Position numbers and translations under genes: made by a program. The notes beneath the pieces were generated by a model, which saw only the letters and a list, made by a program, of their open reading frames with translations, did not search any database and was not told the origin of the DNA. Below are positions 35,934 to 42,908 of a stretch of 64,000 nt of DNA, in pieces. Origin of the DNA: Candidatus Woesearchaeota archaeon (GTDB lineage Archaea; Nanobdellota; Nanobdellia; Woesearchaeales; JACPBO01); contig JACPBO010000005.1 in NCBI GenBank assembly GCA_016180285.1, positions 48,189-112,188 of the forward strand, given 5' to 3'. Position 1 is the first letter of the stretch. Each line of letters starts with the position of its first letter.

Positions 35934-36386
35934 TTAAACAAGCGAATATTTATTGACATTTCTCCACTTAACAAATTCTCTTTGCTTTTTAGGAACATGG
36001 ACTATATTGTAATTTTCATCGACAACCTCAGGATCAAAAAGCGTTCTTCCATGGTCATCTATTAGAGGAAGCTTAATTAAAACTTTACACCTATTAGAAA
36101 GAAGAAGCCTTTGCATTTCTTCCTCAGGGATTTTAAAATTTGAAATATATGCAATGCTGTACTTTAGCTTTTCTCTTTCATTTTTTATTCTTTTTATTTG
36201 CATTTCAGACCTTTTTTTAGATCTTAAATAACGTAAAACAGTATAATGGTCAGTAACGTATTTGTCATAGTTAGTTGATCCAGACAGGCTGCATTCCTGA
36301 TGTGTCAGAAAACAACGAAAATGAGGCGTCCTTTCAAATTCCTTGACTAATTTCTCATATTTTGGCGTGAACAGCTCTTCTAGCAT
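35934..36386 (-). CDS. hypothetical protein (start taken at MLEELFTPKYEK)
   Basis: The ORF-track start is TTG, so the in-frame ATG at 36386 is preferred. No motif. Confidence 0.3.
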   Translation of the reverse strand: MLEELFTPKYEKLVKEFERTPHFRCFLTHQECSLSGSTNYDKYVTDHYTVLRYLRSKKRSEMQIKRIKNEREKLKYSIAYISNFKIPEEEMQRLLLSNRCKVLIKLPLIDDHGRTLFDPEVVDENYNIVHVPKKQREFVKWRNVNKYSLV

Positions 36387-36680
36387 TTTTTCTCGTTTAT
36401 TAAAAAAAGCGCCTAAGGGCAAACACGGGGGTGCTTTAAGAAAGAACCCTCAGGCGGCTTTATTTGTTTTCATCGTGATAAAGCGATATTTGCCTACAAT
36501 ATACCAAGCAGAACTAGTATTTAAATCTTTCGATTGTTTTACCACTAAAAAGTAACAAGATAAATATAATAATCGCAAATGACGAGCTTATTTCTTGCCT
36601 TTCTTTCCGCCACAACCGCATGATCCGCACATTTTGTTTGCCTCCAGGCTAATAAAATGATGCATATTTATATAATTAAC

Positions 36681-36959
36681 TCAAATTAAAGTAAGATAAT
36701 ACCATGTCTGTTTTGCTTTCTCCAAATTAAGTTTTCCTTCAAGGATTATCTTATTTTCCGCATTCACTGCTTCTTCTTCCGACATCGTTGACATATTCGG
36801 AAAGGGGGACCCTGCCCCAATATCCCTTTTTACTCCACGCATTGTCTTATATCTATCTAATACTTCTATCATATCATCTGCAAAAATGCATGCTATTGCA
36901 GCATTACAAGAGCAGCCATTGTGTCCTCTATAAACCTCGACCTTATACCATTGCCCCAT
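36681..36959 (-). CDS. hypothetical small protein with CSCNAAIAC motif
   Basis: A 92-aa protein. Confidence 0.3.
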   Translation of the reverse strand: MGQWYKVEVYRGHNGCSCNAAIACIFADDMIEVLDRYKTMRGVKRDIGAGSPFPNMSTMSEEEAVNAENKIILEGKLNLEKAKQTWYYLTLI

Positions 36960-37048
36960 TTTTTACTAAAATAATGGATAATTTATAAACTTTTGGTGAG
37001 CAAGTTTATCTAGTAACCTTTTTATATGAAAACAAATTCTTTCATGAT

Positions 37049-38308
37049 ATGATCATTGCAGACCTGCATTTACACAGCCGCTTTTCAAGGGCAACAAGCA
37101 AGGATCTCACTATTCCGAACCTTGAGAAATATGCCAGAATAAAGGGCTTAGATGCTCTTGGAACAGGGGATTTTACGCATCCGGAATGGCTCAATGAATT
37201 GAAAAAAGAGCTGGCTGAGGATGGAAAAGGCATTTTAAAGACAAAAACCGGATTTAATTTTGTTCTTCAGGCAGAAGTCTGCAATATTTACAATCAAGGC
37301 AATAAATTAAGGAAAGTGCATAATATAATCCTCGCTAAAAGCTTCGAGGTTGTTGATCAGATAAATGAACTGCTGTCAAAAAAAGGCAAACTTAAATCTG
37401 ACGGAAGGCCTATCTTCGGCTCTTATTCCTGCATTGAATTAGTTGATGATTTGATGAAGATTGACAATGATATTGAGATCATACCGGCGCATTGCTGGAC
37501 GCCTTGGTTCGCTATCTTTGGTTCCATGTCCGGCTTTGATTCAGTCGAAGAATGCTTTATGGAAAAGACAAAATACATCCATGCTTTGGAAACAGGGATG
37601 TCAAGCGATCCTGCAATGAACTGGCGATTATCAACATTGGATAAATTCTCACTTGTTTCAAACTCTGATTCGCATTCTTACTGGCCATGGCGCATTGGAA
37701 GAGAGGCAAATGTTTTCGAATTGAAAGAGCTGACTTATAAGAGCATAATCAATGCTATAAGAACAAAGCAGGGCTTTAAGGAGACTGTTGAAGTTGATCC
37801 TGGCTATGGCAAGTACCATTATGACGGGCATCGCCTCTGCAATGTCTGCATGTCTCCATCAGAATCAATAAAATTAAAAAATATCTGCCCGAAATGCGGC
37901 AGGAAACTGACCATAGGCGTAGCGCACCGCATTGAAGAGCTGGCAGACAGGCCTGAAGGATTTGTTCCAAAAGGCGCAGTTCCGTTCAAAAAATTAATTC
38001 CATTGTCAGAGATAATATCTGCGGTAATTGGATCAGGGATAGCGACTGCAAAGACGTGGAAGATCTATAATGACCTGATTGCCCAGTTTGGAAATGAGTT
38101 CAATATTTTATTGAATGCAGAAGAAAAAGAGCTGCTTAAGGTTGTGGATGAAAAGACTGCAAAAGCGATCATTGGCAACAGGGATGAGAAAATAAAGATC
38201 CAGCCGGGCCATGACGGAGAATATGGCTATCCTGTTTTAAGCGAGAAAGACATGAGAGAAGTAAAAGAGACTAAAAGAATACAGAAGGGCTTGTCGGATT
38301 TTATGTGA
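37049..38308 (+). CDS. Endonuclease Q-like PHP-domain nuclease with zinc finger
   Basis: N-terminal PHP motif ADLHLHSRFSRATS, further His/Asp metal ligands, and the Zn finger CNVCMS...CPKCGRK. Length and architecture match archaeal EndoQ. Confidence 0.65.
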   Translation: MIIADLHLHSRFSRATSKDLTIPNLEKYARIKGLDALGTGDFTHPEWLNELKKELAEDGKGILKTKTGFNFVLQAEVCNIYNQGNKLRKVHNIILAKSFEVVDQINELLSKKGKLKSDGRPIFGSYSCIELVDDLMKIDNDIEIIPAHCWTPWFAIFGSMSGFDSVEECFMEKTKYIHALETGMSSDPAMNWRLSTLDKFSLVSNSDSHSYWPWRIGREANVFELKELTYKSIINAIRTKQGFKETVEVDPGYGKYHYDGHRLCNVCMSPSESIKLKNICPKCGRKLTIGVAHRIEELADRPEGFVPKGAVPFKKLIPLSEIISAVIGSGIATAKTWKIYNDLIAQFGNEFNILLNAEEKELLKVVDEKTAKAIIGNRDEKIKIQPGHDGEYGYPVLSEKDMREVKETKRIQKGLSDFM

Positions 38309-38913
38309 TTTTTATGGACATAACAAAAGAGAGAATAAAAAATTTAGAAATGATTTTAACCCCGGTAAAAGAAAAGAAAGGAGCAATTCTACAAACAGTG
38401 TGGGGGTTAGGAAAAGTTGCTTGCGAACTTTATCTTGAAATTGAAGGCATTTACATTCCAATTCTAAATAAATACTTACAAATTTCTGGGTATATTGACA
38501 TGTTTAATGGCAGTGTAAGGCTGGCAAAATGTGACCAACCAGCTAAATTCAAAAGCGCAGAGACTTGGATTTATAAAATGCTTAAACTTCCTACTATAAA
38601 AAGCCTGTTTGAGAAAGGCGATGATATTTCCATTGACAAGATCACACAAATACATGACTTATGCAGAAGGCTCGATGTAAAGGTTGAAAACGGCCGCAGT
38701 AAAAAGTCTTACCCTCCCTATCTGATGTTGAAACTTGAAAAAACCCATATTGGAATGGCGTACGGCAAAAGATTTGAATTCAGGGAATATATTACTGATG
38801 AGTTTATCGAGAGGAATTCAGCTGTTATTAAAGAAATTTATAATGCGTTATTTAAAATGTACAATGAAAAAATTGAGGGATTTGACAAATGGAAAAAACA
38901 ATTAAACATTTAA
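38305..38913 (+). CDS. hypothetical protein
   Basis: A 202-aa protein whose start overlaps the EndoQ stop (ATGA). Confidence 0.3.
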   Translation: MIFMDITKERIKNLEMILTPVKEKKGAILQTVWGLGKVACELYLEIEGIYIPILNKYLQISGYIDMFNGSVRLAKCDQPAKFKSAETWIYKMLKLPTIKSLFEKGDDISIDKITQIHDLCRRLDVKVENGRSKKSYPPYLMLKLEKTHIGMAYGKRFEFREYITDEFIERNSAVIKEIYNALFKMYNEKIEGFDKWKKQLNI

Positions 38914-39506
38914 AAAAACAATATAAGGATAAAAGCTCTGAAATAAAGAAAAGGCTAGAGGAATTTAAAAAAACCGGCAAAAAAGATGTTGAAGATCTTT
39001 TCGTTGAGCTGTGCTACTGCTTATGCACTCCATTGAGCAAAGCGGAAAGGGTGATTCAGGTCATTAATTCCAAAAATAAAACTATTTTATTGAAAAAAGG
39101 CAAAAAAGAGCTTGAAAATATATTAAGAAGGCATGTAAGATTCCACAAGAATAAGTCAAAGTACATAATTGAAGCGAGAAGATTGTTGAAAAGATTAAAA
39201 GAACTTTCAAAAAATCCTGATGAAGCGAGGGATTTTCTTGTTGAAAACATCAAAGGATTGAGCTTCAAGGAGGCATCGCATTTTCTAAGAAATATTGGAT
39301 ACGGAGGATTAGCTATAATAGACGGGCATATTTTAAACTGCCTAAAAGAGCATGGTGTTTTGAAAAGCAACAAAAGGCCTAAAAATAAAAAGGAATACCT
39401 TGAAATTGAAAACAAAATAAAAGAATTTGCTGAAAAAGCAAGAATACCGGTTGATGAGCTTGATCTGCTGTTCTGGAGCAATAAGACCGGGAAAGTGCTA
39501 AAATAA
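38889..39506 (+). CDS. Archaeal Ogg2-type 8-oxoguanine DNA glycosylase / AP lyase (HhH-GPD superfamily)
   Basis: GLSFKEASHFLRNIGYGGLAIIDGHIL matches the HhH plus catalytic Lys/Asp region of the Ogg2 family. About 205 aa, as in MjOgg. Confidence 0.6.
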   Translation: MEKTIKHLKKQYKDKSSEIKKRLEEFKKTGKKDVEDLFVELCYCLCTPLSKAERVIQVINSKNKTILLKKGKKELENILRRHVRFHKNKSKYIIEARRLLKRLKELSKNPDEARDFLVENIKGLSFKEASHFLRNIGYGGLAIIDGHILNCLKEHGVLKSNKRPKNKKEYLEIENKIKEFAEKARIPVDELDLLFWSNKTGKVLK

Positions 39507-39532
39507 GTTTTTATGCGCAATGTCAGAATTTA

Positions 39533-39991
39533 TTAAAATGTATTTTTAGGTTTATGGATTCTTGTTTTAATGCCAATTTTCTCAGTTGCTTTTTTGAATT
39601 TGTCTAGATAATCCTTAAAAACAATTGCAGTTGGAGATTCTCCTGCCTCCACATTATACCTAAAATAGCTTCTTATGTTTTTTGTTACAATATTAAGCCG
39701 AGGTATTTGGCTTCTAGGACTGTCTGTTAATGAATTACCGCCACATGAAACTCCTGTGAATTCTCCAGTCCTCCTATTGTCCATAGAATATACATAAAAC
39801 GAGAAACATGCTTGATCAGAGCCAGGATATTGATATTTTAATATAGCCAACACATCTCCCCTTTGTTCTTTTTCTAGATTTGGCTTTATATTTTTTTGAT
39901 AGAACTTGACTATGGGCGGCACATCGGAGACTGAAGGGTCTAGTATTTCATTAAAGATATACACATCAATTGTTTTATAAGCAGTTTTCAT
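39533..39991 (-). CDS. hypothetical protein
   Basis: A 152-aa protein with no motif. Confidence 0.3.
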   Translation of the reverse strand: MKTAYKTIDVYIFNEILDPSVSDVPPIVKFYQKNIKPNLEKEQRGDVLAILKYQYPGSDQACFSFYVYSMDNRRTGEFTGVSCGGNSLTDSPRSQIPRLNIVTKNIRSYFRYNVEAGESPTAIVFKDYLDKFKKATEKIGIKTRIHKPKNTF

Positions 39992-40031: not shown

Positions 40032-41447
40032 TTATTTCTTCTTCGACAGCACTTCCACAACCCATTCCTTCTTTGCTGTTGTTTGGCCGTCAGAAACCGT
40101 TACTGAGATCTTCTTTGTCCCTGATGCTGTGAATTTCCTTGTTATCGCGTCTTTTCCTTTGCGCGTATCCAGAAATCCAAGATGCCAGGAATAAGTCAGA
40201 TTGTCATTATCAGGGTCTGAAGCATTTACGCTGAACCTCACCTTTGCGCCGACATATGCTTTTATCTTTTCTCCAGCTGGCTCATAATCATTTATTACAG
40301 GCGCTCTGTTTGCATCCTTGACTGTTAATGTGAAATTCTGCGTTGCATTAAGGCCGCTGCTGTCCCTTGCCGTGAAGGTTATATTGAATTTCTTCTGCCT
40401 TACTTTTACATCTTCATGCGATACAACACCATAATTTGGCTTGTAAATAAACCTGTTTTCAGTCAGGCTTGAATTGTAAGGAACATTTGGAGATGAAAAT
40501 ATCGGGGCATCACCGTCTGGATCAGATGCTTTAAGGTCAATAATAACTTCATCGCCTTCCTTGACAGCGGCATTCTTTATCGGATCAAATACAGGAGCTC
40601 TGTTTACATTATTCACAATTACAGAAACATCTTTTGAATCAGATAAAAATCCGTCAGATGCCTTTACAGTTACAATATGAACTCCGGCATCATCATAGCC
40701 GGTTGTTTTTTTATTTGAATCCATCCAGCCTCTGTAGCTGTATTTTATTTTATCATTGTCAGGGTCTGCGGCAGAGGCATTTATTACAACTTCCTCGCCT
40801 TCGTTGACTGTTATTGGAGCAAGGGCAGCTAAAACAGGCTGCCTATTGGCATCGTAAACCTTTACTTTGAAATTTTTTTCAGAATATGCTGTTCTTCCAA
40901 TCGCCTTTAACTTCACATTGAATGTTTTGCTTATTTTAACAAACGGAAGATTATCTATCAATCTGGAAAACCAGTTCTTTTTGACTGTGTCATAGCCTGT
41001 GGCCATGGAAAAATGATCATTAACGAATACTGCACCTTCCGGCAGGCTTACTGCGCTTATTGTTACATGATCGCCGTCAAGATCATAAGCGCTTGCATCA
41101 AATGATGCATCCTGTGTTTCGTTTACAGCAGCAATCCTGGCTGGATTAAATATCGGCGGCCTGTCAATATCTATGACTTTTATGTTTAAATCCTCTGAGA
41201 TAACAAACTCGCCGTCAGAAACAGAAACAAAGCTTCTGTAATCACCTGACTGGTTGAAATCAGGACGCCATTCCCCTTTTGAGTTTAAAGGCGGGGCATA
41301 GCTTATTGTTACTTTGTCTTTGTCAGGGTCATAAGCATTTACTTTGACTTTCAGCAGCTTTCCTTCATCAACTGTGAGATTTGCAGCAGCGAATACATAA
41401 ACAGATAAGACTATTATCAAAACTAAAAAAAGTGATAATTTCTTCAT
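40032..41447 (-). CDS. Secreted protein with repeated cadherin-like/He_PIG-type Ig domains
   Basis: Signal peptide, then several roughly 90-aa repeats such as VSVSDGEFVISEDLNIKVIDIDRPP, TVKASDGFLSDSKDVSVIVNNVNRAPVF and SVTVSDGQTTAKKEWVVEV. Confidence 0.55.
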   Translation of the reverse strand: MKKLSLFLVLIIVLSVYVFAAANLTVDEGKLLKVKVNAYDPDKDKVTISYAPPLNSKGEWRPDFNQSGDYRSFVSVSDGEFVISEDLNIKVIDIDRPPIFNPARIAAVNETQDASFDASAYDLDGDHVTISAVSLPEGAVFVNDHFSMATGYDTVKKNWFSRLIDNLPFVKISKTFNVKLKAIGRTAYSEKNFKVKVYDANRQPVLAALAPITVNEGEEVVINASAADPDNDKIKYSYRGWMDSNKKTTGYDDAGVHIVTVKASDGFLSDSKDVSVIVNNVNRAPVFDPIKNAAVKEGDEVIIDLKASDPDGDAPIFSSPNVPYNSSLTENRFIYKPNYGVVSHEDVKVRQKKFNITFTARDSSGLNATQNFTLTVKDANRAPVINDYEPAGEKIKAYVGAKVRFSVNASDPDNDNLTYSWHLGFLDTRKGKDAITRKFTASGTKKISVTVSDGQTTAKKEWVVEVLSKKK

Positions 41448-41639: not shown

Positions 41640-42908
41640 TTAACCCTGCGTTACATCGCCGATTACAGGCGGCCTGTTGACATCTTTCACTGAAACTTTC
41701 AGATCCTGGCTGACACTCTCCTTGCCGTCGCTTACTGTTACTCTGACATTGTATATTGCGGTGCATCCCTTTGCATTGCATCCTTTTGGATACGCGTCAT
41801 CATATGTTGTCTGATAGCTTGATGAATCCGTCCATCCGCTGAATGTGATTGTTAAAGCATCTCCATCAGGGTCAGCTGCATCCACATTAATTTTCACAAT
41901 CTCGCCTTCATTCACTGAAATGTCATTTATCTTTGCAAGCACAGGCAGCTTGTTGCTTTCAATAACATCGATTGCAACTGTTTTTGTTGCAACATCCTTG
42001 CCATCTGAAGCGGAAACTGTTATTGTATAAGTTCCTGCATCCCTGTAGCCTGTTTTCCATGTTCCTGTTGCCAGAGGAGCGGAGATTGTGACATCAACCT
42101 TGTCGCCATCCGGGTCAATAACAATAGGCCTTACTTCAACTGTTTCGCTTGCCTTCACTTTTATCGGATCAATGTCCTGGATTACCGGCGGCCTGTTTAC
42201 ATTTGCAACATTTACTGTCCATTCCTTTGAAGCTTCTAAAGCGCCGTCAGAAACAGCAACAGTCACTTTATGCTGGCCTGCAGAGTCATAGCTCAGATCA
42301 TACAGATAAAGGTCTTTTGTTGAAACTTCCTTGTCATCAACTTTCCATAAATACATCAAAGCGTCCTTATTCGGATCAGAAGCTTCAACTTTAAATTCAA
42401 TTGTTTTTCCTTCATCGCTGTTTGCTATCAGATCAGAAGGCTTAAATGATGTAATTGTTGGAGCCTTGTTTGTCTTCTTTACAATTATTGTTATGTCTTT
42501 TGAAACACTTGTTGTTCCGTCTGAAACGGTTATTGTAACCCTATATTCGCCCATATCTCCGAGCTTCGTCTGCCACTCTCCTTTCTCGTTCAATGGCGGG
42601 CCGAATGTATAGGTTAAAGCATCTCCATCAGGGTCAGCTGCAACAAGCTTTATCTTCACCATATCGCCTTCGCTGACTGAAATAGTTGTCAATGCTGCCA
42701 GCTCCTGCGGAGGCTCTTCATGCTGCGGGGTCATATTTGCTGTTGCCTCTCCATTTGCAGGCTGCGTTGCATTCAAAGGCGCAATAACGCCTGTTCCATT
42801 CGAAGCAGGAACCAACCCCGGAAAATAATCCGGATATTTGTAACAGCCAGCTAACAGCAGAACTACACTCAACAAAATTAAATATCTTACACCCCTCATG
42901 TTTTCCAC
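41640..42908 (-). CDS. Secreted lipoprotein with repeated cadherin-like/He_PIG-type Ig domains (paralog of 40032..41447)
   Basis: Lipobox LLAGC, then repeats such as VTITVSDGTTSVSKDITIIVKKTNKAPTI, VAVSDGALEASKEWTVNVANVNRPPVI and VTVSDGKESVSQDLKVSVKDVNRPPVI. Confidence 0.55.
   Translation of the reverse strand: MENMRGVRYLILLSVVLLLAGCYKYPDYFPGLVPASNGTGVIAPLNATQPANGEATANMTPQHEEPPQELAALTTISVSEGDMVKIKLVAADPDGDALTYTFGPPLNEKGEWQTKLGDMGEYRVTITVSDGTTSVSKDITIIVKKTNKAPTITSFKPSDLIANSDEGKTIEFKVEASDPNKDALMYLWKVDDKEVSTKDLYLYDLSYDSAGQHKVTVAVSDGALEASKEWTVNVANVNRPPVIQDIDPIKVKASETVEVRPIVIDPDGDKVDVTISAPLATGTWKTGYRDAGTYTITVSASDGKDVATKTVAIDVIESNKLPVLAKINDISVNEGEIVKINVDAADPDGDALTITFSGWTDSSSYQTTYDDAYPKGCNAKGCTAIYNVRVTVSDGKESVSQDLKVSVKDVNRPPVIGDVTQG

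Follow-up and report, generated by a model that had tools for sequence, protein, structure and literature searches.

In the 64,000-nucleotide stretch of Candidatus Woesearchaeota DNA analyzed here (the window), the repair genes endoQ and ogg2 are separated by a third ORF of composite origin. On balance, we favor the view that two ordinary, intact repair genes have come to lie side by side in one clade, with a hitch-hiking orphan gene, X, between them. The ORF list gives three ORFs on the + strand, at 37049-38308 (419 aa), 38305-38913 (202 aa, GTG start) and 38889-39506 (205 aa), exactly the three adjoining, co-oriented ORFs, the middle one of 202 aa, that a preliminary description of this DNA had reported:

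37049..38308, + strand: endoQ, 419 aa, with PHP nuclease domain, C4 Zn-binding domain, C-terminal helical domain and PIP-like tail
38314..38913 (from ATG, 199 aa) or from GTG 38305 (202 aa), + strand: middle ORF, a chimera of an N-terminal module and the X-core
38889..39506, + strand: ogg2, 205 aa, 8-oxoguanine DNA glycosylase/AP lyase of the Ogg2 subfamily

The flanking repair enzymes

The first ORF is a full-length member of the EndoQ family, its residues 3-402 matching residues 4-387 of PfuEndoQ (PDB 5zb8, E=4.7e-59). EndoQ enzymes cut DNA 5' of dU, dI, dX and AP sites. The metal ligands of PfuEndoQ are His8, His10, Glu76, His84, His139 and Asp193, together with His195 (PMC5961232). At the aligned positions the window protein has the identical ligands H7, H9, E76, H91, H148, D207 and H209; none of the PHP catalytic residues is missing. 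The lesion pocket and wedge of PfuEndoQ comprise Thr142, Trp144, Glu167, Leu168, Gly169, Leu170 and Asn191, Leu168 making its pocket contact through the main chain (PMC5961232). In the window protein T151, W153, E181, G183 and N205 are identical to their PfuEndoQ counterparts, whereas L168 and L170 are replaced by T182 and M184. The C4 zinc finger (C264-x2-C267 ... C280-x2-C283) has the spacing CxxC-x12-CxxC, as opposed to x15 in the Pfu enzyme, the first CxxC being shifted by 3 residues relative to Pfu C249/C252 in the HMMER alignment. The C-terminal helical domain (PF27218, MJ0043_C) is recorded for the window EndoQ and all its relatives, and the extreme C-terminus is a PIP-like box, QKGLSDFM (residues 412-419). 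The PIP box serves PCNA binding; its consensus is Qxxhxxaa, and in EndoQ it has a C-terminal location (PMC4858679). The tails of the relatives read QKGLGEFIK, QKGLGDFIK, QKGLGDFF and similar. TIGR00375 (COG1379), a model of the type 'hypoth_equivalog', scores 218.1 bits, under the curated NCBIfam cut-off of 326.6; close relatives carry the NCBI name 'endonuclease Q family protein'. Judged by its conserved residues, the window EndoQ is a catalytically intact, ordinary base-lesion repair protein, and both the PHP motif and the C4 zinc finger by which it had been recognized as EndoQ-like are present, along with the match to 5zb8.

The distribution of the family has to be revised. Its founding paper of 2015 reportedly knew EndoQ only from Thermococcales and some methanogens, and the preliminary description likewise placed it mainly there. 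This is outdated, the family being abundant in DPANN archaea and Bathyarchaeia. Among the papers on DPANN archaea listed by our literature search, none mentions EndoQ.

The third ORF scores 200.6 bits with the Ogg2 equivalog model NF002305, above its cut-off of 183, and matches PF22175 (Ogg-HhH; 1.3e-51, 175 bits vs a cut-off of 27) and MjaOgg (PDB 3fhf; 4.4e-37). The catalytic Lys, K127 in GLSFKEASHF, is aligned with the Lys of 3fhf; in the DNA-complex chain of MjaOgg (3KNT) this position is a Gln, by mutation. The HhH-GPD Asp is D145 in AIIDGHIL, and the protein ends in GKVLK with K205 as the terminal Lys, a residue strictly conserved in the Ogg2 subfamily (PMC3397491). With a score above the cut-off and the Lys, the Asp and the C-terminal Lys all kept, the earlier assignment to the Ogg2 type stands, and by its motifs the window Ogg2 is ordinary and catalytically intact.

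The middle ORF and the X-core

The junction between endoQ and the middle ORF reads ...TTT ATG TGA TTT TTA TGG... and offers two starts: GTG 38305, which gives a 4-nt GTGA overlap with endoQ, and ATG 38314 (the NCBI call, 199 aa), 5 nt past the endoQ stop. An ATGA overlap had been reported at this junction, but a true one is found only in the relatives L008, L010 and L011; the window has the GTGA or the 5-nt gap instead. At the other end, the reported overlap with the Ogg2-family gene was correct and extends over 25 nt. Since the junction DNA is 100% identical in four independent assemblies from different samples, the arrangement is not an assembly artefact.

The first 88 aa of the middle ORF come from an insertion of about 250 bp, and the last 111 aa form the X-core:

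38282..38305, + strand: codons of the PIP-like box (QKGLSDFM), also the left copy of an imperfect direct repeat flanking the insertion
38297..38498, + strand: exchanged segment, covering the endoQ stop region and ~62 codons at the start of the middle ORF
38558..38580, + strand: remnant, now degenerate, of the 3' end of the ancestral endoQ (CAGAGACTTGGATTTATAAAATG); right repeat copy, ending in the ancestral X start codon
38578..38913, + strand: X-core, 111 aa, from a family of small proteins confined to one clade, fold predicted as alpha-beta4-alpha

Through the insertion, the 3' end of endoQ with its PIP-box codons came to be present twice, and the remnant aligns with CAGAAAGGGCTTGGAGAGTTTATAAAATG(A) of L008 and CAGAAGGGATTGGGAGATTTTATAAAATG(A) of L010. 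The exchanged segment is identical to L012 at 196 of 202 positions (97%); identity is 72% in the adjacent endoQ DNA and 58% after 38498. By these alignments, the window's middle ORF is a recent chimera made by recombination. We rejected the idea that the N-terminal module is a diverged X paralogue: hhalign aligns only 19 columns (E=0.15), and the X HMM scores -1.0 bits, a value reached or exceeded by 1506 of 2000 shuffles. A MITE or transposon was rejected as well: the insertion lacks terminal inverted repeats, occurs nowhere else in the window or the loci, and matches no Rfam family.

Might such a chimera be a non-functional by-product, the insertion having broken the ancestral coupling and left the X-core untranslated or decaying? 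The insertion does put distance between the X-core ATG (38578) and the endoQ stop, and no SD-like element precedes this ATG. The N-terminal module has relatives only in L012, where it ends in an unrelated 84-aa ORF, and single-sequence structure prediction for the full ORF gives a poor model (pLDDT 43.7). However, the N-terminal module reads through into the X-core in one open frame, the X-core itself has neither stops nor frameshifts, the window-L008 pN/pS is as low as that of the other pairs, and the identical sequence persists in the four assemblies. We consider a by-product very unlikely.

An exhaustive HMMER search of 1.84e9 representatives found the X family to consist of P0001 and P0122-P0125 only, spanning five closely related lineages (the X-core orthologue P0122 at 66%, P0124 and P0125 at 45%). 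Profile search, metagenome scan and viral scans yielded no further members. Within the family, the pN/pS of the X-core is 0.33-0.48 in frame vs 0.8-1.3 off frame, by which measure it is a real protein-coding gene under frame-specific purifying selection. Its dN/dS of 0.17-0.20 vs 0.05-0.10 for the flanks indicates that X evolves several-fold faster than endoQ and ogg2.

The AF2 model of the X-core (pLDDT 77.8) has an alpha-beta4-alpha fold without a significant relative, although one may be missed, the AlphaFold database lying outside the search. As no more than a lead, the fold class may be that which SCOP gives to TBP-like alpha+beta domains, among them the A-domain at the N-terminus of OGG1/AlkA and the substrate-binding domain at the N-terminus of RNase H3. 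A GIY-YIG nuclease, suggested by a YIG motif, was rejected: there is no Pfam match at E<=10, the Arg position varies (R/K/K/H), and the predicted topology does not fit that of GIY-YIG. Derivation of X from endoQ or ogg2 sequence was likewise rejected (hhalign E=0.19 and 0.97). We infer X to be a small alpha+beta protein, mildly basic and non-enzymatic. That the X-core is a new, separately encoded archaeal BER module with a TBP-like fold, translationally coupled to Ogg2 and acting as the A-domain of OGG1/AlkA does, or tethering Ogg2 to PCNA-bound EndoQ for AP-site handover, seems to us a long shot.

It is also conceivable that X is a conflict-type or selfish cassette (inhibitor, immunity or addiction-type) sitting at a recombination hot spot, with alleles exchanged independently of the flanks. 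Synonymous divergence is higher in X than in the adjacent ogg2, with P<=0.003 for each pair that has L011 as a member, but the pS estimates rest on about 60 synonymous sites. Presence/absence polymorphism of X and the 202-bp segment shared at 97% identity with a lineage in which endoQ identity is 72% point in the same direction, and the endoQ of L010 carries an intein with a LAGLIDADG-like motif, which shows that mobile elements do reach this locus. Yet X has no partner gene, no terminal repeats and no integrase, and its GC content is the same as that of ogg2, so a compositional anomaly was dismissed. A viral or defence origin was dismissed too: PADLOC gave no match, three viral-contig scans were empty, and PHROGs returned a single weak match (anti-repressor Ant, E=0.051) for one of five queries. 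A cassette of this kind is improbable.

Gene order and expression of the locus

Where X occurs and the contig includes both flanks, it always sits between endoQ and ogg2. The order endoQ-X-ogg2 is kept only in L001-L004, L008/L009 and L010, and partially in L011, where X lies upstream of ogg2 and behind the endoQ 3' end, of which the contig has the last 47 nt only. In L008 and L010, X overlaps endoQ by an ATGA and ogg2 by 13-25 nt, and L011 has the same junction sequences. Because ORF1 is intact and X lies beside its partners in L008/L009, L010 and L011, the preliminary description fails neither through missing PHP residues nor through a middle ORF adjoining neither partner elsewhere; it is the C-terminal half of that ORF which recurs between endoQ and ogg2 in L008/L009 and L010.

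The lineages with this order share a whole ~10-kb block, syntenic by descent, and other junctions of the same block likewise carry lineage-specific ORFans. In L005, endoQ is followed after 20 bp by ogg2 and X is absent; by this absence, X is dispensable. In L012, X is replaced or rearranged. Neither Ogg2 nor X lies within 4 kb of endoQ in any of 80 other species-representative EndoQ loci (49-67% identity), ogg2 is absent downstream of endoQ in L094 and L095 (72-76% EndoQ identity), and the three-gene order is also absent in L096 and L007. We found no case of the order being kept in distant lineages, beyond common descent. The absence of X in L005 and from all 80 other loci therefore speaks for a clade-specific juxtaposition and against a repair module kept by conservation. 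We also rejected the idea that endoQ is the core of a BER cluster with wide conservation, since the ligase, UDG and PolX of L007 and Ogg2 are unmatched in the 80 loci.

Several signals bear on expression:

37019..37028, + strand: TATA-like box TTTTTATATG, ~25 nt upstream of the endoQ ATG
38875..38879, + strand: GAGGG, Shine-Dalgarno-like, 9 nt before the ogg2 ATG and within the X coding sequence
39508..39512, + strand: T5 run, directly after the ogg2 stop and ahead of ORF 39533-39991, which is convergent

The motif tttttatat(g/a)aaa occurs at the same distance in the window, L008, L010 and L005, with varying surrounding bases, and is likely an archaeal promoter producing a leaderless or short-leader mRNA. 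GAGGG is partly conserved (AGGGG and AAAGG in relatives, none in L011) and may act as a Shine-Dalgarno-like element of ogg2. The T5 run, which is not conserved in relatives, is a possible archaeal oligo-T terminator. A bacterial promoter and terminator scan gave counts at chance level, its models not being applicable to archaea. With all three genes on one strand, no space between them that could take a further promoter or a terminator, and a conserved TATA-like box upstream, endoQ, X and ogg2 are probably co-transcribed. On such a single transcript, translation of the middle ORF would follow that of endoQ by termination-reinitiation, and that of ogg2 would begin at its start inside X. EndoQ would incise 5' of U, Hx or AP sites with the help of PCNA; the AP sites that Ogg2 leaves behind could be a further substrate.

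What remains of the proposed three-gene repair operon is its architecture: the genes are co-oriented, abut or overlap, and have a TATA-like box, but their order is confined to one narrow clade and recurs in 0 of 80 other EndoQ loci. A dedicated operon for base lesions, in which X binds DNA, PCNA or an enzyme and hands AP-site/8-oxoG intermediates between Ogg2 and EndoQ, is in our opinion doubtful. A co-functioning accessory subunit would show the tight coupling to both neighbors seen in L008 and L010, and it would show the purifying selection seen on X. On the other hand, no sequence similarity, fold match or fusion ties X to repair, and the window's middle gene is a recent chimera; an accessory role for it is conjectural. 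The link of X to repair is positional only, and under the juxtaposition that we favor X is most likely one of several lineage-specific ORFans at variable junctions, not a required repair factor.

As things are, the gain goes little beyond annotation: one more intact EndoQ and one more Ogg2, with EndoQ common in DPANN archaea. The useful results are negative and anatomical, namely that the "operon" is clade-specific and that it contains a dispensable, fast-evolving ORFan, here a recombination chimera. The locus illustrates in compact form how genes arise and turn over at a junction of housekeeping genes in reduced genomes. Should X prove to be a binding partner of EndoQ, Ogg2 or PCNA, EndoQ-initiated repair would have its first lineage-specific accessory protein and, at 111 aa, one that is a cheap target for biochemistry.

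Comparison with known systems

The EndoQ proteins of Pyrococcus furiosus and Thermococcus kodakarensis (PDB 5ZB8, 7K30-7K33) are collinear with the window EndoQ over its full length. Unlike these organisms, the host of the window EndoQ is a mesophilic DPANN archaeon, and the last PIP position is a Met in place of an aromatic residue or Ile/Leu. As in the window, endoQ belongs to a set of co-oriented, abutting repair genes in the related Woesearchaeote L007; that cluster (ligase-UDG-PolX-endoQ) differs, however, in having neither ogg2 nor X. Like the Ogg2-subfamily proteins MjaOgg (3FHF/3KNT), SsoOgg (3FHG) and TmaOgg (3N0U), the window Ogg2, at about 205 aa, lacks an N-terminal A-domain, and nothing about the protein is notable in comparison with them. 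What is unusual for an Ogg2 gene is its setting, with a start inside the preceding ORF and endoQ just upstream.

An EndoQ-Ogg2 array with a small gene between

Three co-oriented ORFs, at the coordinates given in the preliminary description, form a tight array: the outer two encode intact enzymes, and the one between them contains a genuine small gene. A TATA-like box precedes the array, and its spacing to the start codon of endoQ is the same in four lineages.

Features of the array
37019-37028: TATA-like box TTTTTATATG, upstream of the endoQ ATG
37049-38308, + strand: endoQ (ORF1), 419 aa, from the ORF list
38305-38913, + strand: middle ORF, 202 aa from GTG or 199 aa from ATG 38314
38889-39506, + strand: ogg2 (ORF3), 205 aa, from the ORF list

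The alignment of ORF1 with PfuEndoQ 5zb8 is full-length (E=4.7e-59, residues 3-402 paired with 4-387), and ORF1 matches TIGR00375 with 218 bits, under the curated cut-off of 326.6. PfuEndoQ binds metal through H8, H10, E76, H84, H139 and D193 (plus H195), its lesion pocket and wedge involve T142, W144, E167, L168, G169, L170 and N191, and it has a C4 finger (PMC5961232). The window protein carries all the ligands (H7, H9, E76, H91, H148, D207, H209), the pocket and wedge residues T151, W153, E181, G183 and N205, and the finger C264-x2-C267...C280-x2-C283, so that the PHP motif and zinc finger first noticed in it are both there with no catalytic residue missing; it differs in having T for L168 and M for L170. 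Its C-terminus, QKGLSDFM, matches the consensus Qxxhxxaa of the C-terminal PIP box that mediates PCNA stimulation of archaeal EndoQ (PMC4858679). These residues mark ORF1 as an intact EndoQ. The ending in relatives is QKGLGEFIK or close to it, and a PIP-like Q(K/T)GL..F. tail is present in every EndoQ C-terminus inspected (the window and eight relatives).

Two related loci carry peculiarities of their own. In L010 (122-2581) EndoQ is 819 aa long and contains a 399-aa intein, which starts with CLLPG, ends with VHN followed by Cys+1, includes a LAGLIDADG-like LAGYYIAEGY motif and interrupts PAHCWTPW after the catalytic His148, ahead of Cys149, at a point equivalent to window ~37492/37493. In L011 (1-47) an in-frame TAG four codons ahead of the normal endoQ stop, by which the PIP box would be lost, is probably a sequencing error in a low-coverage contig (cov 2).

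ORF3 exceeds the equivalog cut-off of NF002305 (200.6 vs 183) and matches PF22175 (1.3e-51) and MjaOgg (3fhf, 4.4e-37). Its K127 aligns with the Lys replaced by Gln in the DNA-complex chain 3knt, and D145 lies within AIIDGHIL. The protein ends in GKVLK, K205 being the C-terminal Lys that is strictly conserved in Ogg2 (PMC3397491). The earlier assignment to the Ogg2-type glycosylases holds, and on these matches ORF3 is Ogg2.

The endoQ/middle ORF junction reads TTT ATG TGA TTT TTA TGG; in place of the ATGA overlap described earlier, the two ORFs either overlap by GTGA or lie 5 nt apart, depending on the start (ATG 38314 in the NCBI annotation). The overlap with ogg2 is real and spans 25 nt. Since the junction DNA is 100% identical across four independent assemblies, it is not an assembly artefact. 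A single leaderless or short-leader transcript may span the three genes; ribosomes that end at the endoQ stop would reinitiate there on the middle ORF, and ogg2 would start within X (the last 111 aa of the middle ORF) after a weak SD-like GAGGG. Ogg2 would remove 8-oxoG; EndoQ, aided by PCNA via its PIP tail, would nick DNA on the 5' side of uracil, hypoxanthine or an AP site, and AP sites left by Ogg2 could be incised by EndoQ.

The middle ORF: an ORFan core and a probably foreign N-terminus

No relative of the middle ORF turned up in Pfam, NCBIfam, PADLOC or the PDB, PHROGs gave only a single match at E=0.051, and a word-indexed search of 5.8e9 proteins returned the middle protein alone. Exhaustive HMMER over 1.84e9 representatives added four proteins: P0122 (111 aa, 66% identity), P0124 (105 aa) and P0125 (109 aa; each ~45%) correspond to residues 89-199, and P0123 (84 aa, 91%) to residues 1-64. 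Profile search, metagenome scan and viral scans yielded no further relatives. X forms an uncharacterised family of ORFans, present in five lineages.

Its substitution pattern argues that the X-core is a real but fast-evolving gene. In the same genome pairs dN/dS (Nei-Gojobori) is 0.17-0.20 for X vs 0.05-0.10 for endoQ/ogg2, X dN being 3-8x that of the flanking genes, and pN/pS is 0.33-0.48 in frame vs 0.8-1.3 in the two shifted frames. For the X-core (window 38578-38886 with the L008, L010 and L011 orthologues) pS, at 0.57-0.88, is also higher than for ogg2 next to it (0.42-0.58), significantly so in every pair with L011 (bootstrap P<=0.003); alleles exchanged at the junction, or a history that differs locally there, could be behind this. 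The GC content of X equals that of ogg2.

An AlphaFold2 model of the X-core from a four-sequence alignment (pLDDT 77.8, pTM 0.70) predicts four strands between a helix at 19-31 and a long one at 74-94. Foldseek found nothing at E<=1e-3 in PDB and BFVD. In SCOP terms the structural neighbours of the model would be TBP-like-fold domains, which serves as a lead only. The A-domain of OGG1 and AlkA belongs to the TBP-like fold; neither protein was among the top 60 structure matches. The core is mildly basic (pI ~9 in 3/4 members). Most probably X has no enzymatic activity.

From the endoQ stop to the beginning of X, the window contains ~250 bp that L008 and L010 lack.

Landmarks of the insertion
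38282-38305: left edge, CAGAAGGGCTTGTCGGATTTTATG, encoding the PIP box
38558-38580: degenerate second copy, CAGAGACTTGGATTTATAAAATG, aligning with the ancestral endoQ end and X start of L008 and L010
38578-38913, + strand: X-core, the C-terminal part common to window and relatives

Positions 38297-38498 are 97% identical (196/202) to the related locus L012, whereas the adjacent endoQ DNA is only 72% identical, and the similarity collapses past 38498. Window and L012 also have in common the ending ...GLSDFM* in place of ...GEFIK*. These breakpoints mark the window middle ORF as a chimera. Most simply, it would have arisen when an L012-like donor recombined with this locus, homologously on the left, inside the 3' end of endoQ, and illegitimately on the right, joining ~62 foreign codons and a 26-codon linker in frame to the X-core. 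The N-terminal module (first 88 aa) was rejected as an X paralogue, having no significant similarity to X. That the fusion ORF is non-functional we consider very improbable; the poor single-sequence model of all 199 aa (pLDDT 43.7) speaks for this reading, the in-frame constraint on X against it. X as a conflict-type or mobile cassette, for which its synonymous divergence and its presence in some relatives but not in others would speak, is rather unlikely; the insertion module lacks terminal repeats, and further copies of it were not found.

Distribution of the arrangement and the place of X

In L008/L009 (GCA_030651135.1) and L010, X (105-111 aa) follows endoQ with an ATGA overlap and shares 13-25 nt with ogg2 behind it; L011, on whose contig no more of endoQ is present than its final 47 nt, has the same junction sequences. 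The middle gene is thus kept beside its partners elsewhere as its C-terminal part. L008/L009 and L010 share one larger block of synteny with the window: in L008/L009 nucleotidyltransferase, methyltransferase and HAD genes precede endoQ, X, ogg2 and two PKD-repeat genes, and the shorter L010 contig begins at endoQ. L005, with an 87% identical EndoQ, has endoQ, 20 bp and ogg2, and no X; its spacer is similar to the opening ~10 nt and closing ~15 nt of X, a hint of a deletion.

Further away the pairing dissolves. Downstream of endoQ there is no ogg2 in L094 and L095 (72-76% identity), L007 (69%) has a ligase-UDG-PolX-endoQ arrangement instead, and in L096 (68%) a convergent EndoIII-like glycosylase lies ~0.5 kb from endoQ. 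A tblastn search of 80 loci from GTDB species representatives, whose EndoQ is 49-67% identical, detected neither Ogg2 nor X within 4 kb of endoQ in any of them (0/80), and likewise none of the L007 partners (ligase, UDG, PolX; 0/80); endoQ-ogg2 adjacency was seen again in no other locus examined.

Some of these neighbourhoods deserve a word. In L007 (1032-6272), from a related Woesearchaeote, four genes in one orientation, each overlapping or abutting the next, encode DNA ligase, UDG, PolX (PHP domain) and EndoQ, all that short-patch BER requires. EndoIII-like HhH-GPD glycosylases with a C-terminal Fe-S cysteine cluster lie <=4 kb from endoQ in L096 (2564-3193, - strand), L034 and L052, an occasional pairing unlike that with ogg2 in family and, for L096, in orientation. 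A 74-aa ORF downstream of endoQ in L094 (1822-2046) consists of two tandem copies of the motif KKxKGxLYFxDKKGxxSxAxMARG.

The junctions around the trio are variable.

ORFans without Pfam family at the flanking junctions
35934-36422 and 36681-36959, - strand: HAD/endoQ junction
39533-39991, - strand: ogg2/PKD junction

The first junction holds a response regulator in L008 and is empty in L005; the second holds a 252-aa ORF in L005 and is empty in L008 and L010. On the locus comparisons, common descent in a narrow clade accounts for the position of X beside repair genes, and junction ORFans are the rule in this block. Of the three-gene base-lesion repair operon first proposed, the intact EndoQ and Ogg2 in a tight array stand; the gene order is confined to that clade. 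That X is a genuine repair accessory, for which its tight coupling to both neighbours and its purifying selection would speak, seems unlikely to us, and we lean, with little more than even confidence, towards X being a positional hitch-hiker.

Two large tandem PKD/cadherin-like repeat genes (40032-41447 and 41640-42908, both - strand), likely encoding surface proteins, are kept directly or nearly so downstream of ogg2 in all relatives. A weak Rfam permuted tmRNA match at 36462-36623 (+ strand; 19.7 bits vs a gathering score of 47, E=0.47) is most likely chance.

EndoQ beyond Thermococcales and methanogens

EndoQ is mentioned in none of the ten papers listed by a literature search pairing it with DPANN, Woesearchaeota and Nanoarchaeota. 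The founding paper of 2015 described EndoQ as conserved only in Thermococcales and some methanogens, with Nanoarchaeota lacking it (PMC4357722), and the preliminary description likewise took it to be mainly restricted to the first two groups; thousands of DPANN and Bathyarchaeia homologues in current databases make this view outdated. EndoQ-family genes are abundant in MAGs of Woesearchaeota, Nanoarchaeota, Aenigmatarchaeota, Pacearchaeota, Undinarchaeota, Nanohalarchaeota and Bathyarchaeia (loci L013-L092, proteins P0002-P0121). The EndoQ and Ogg2 of the window are new members of known families.
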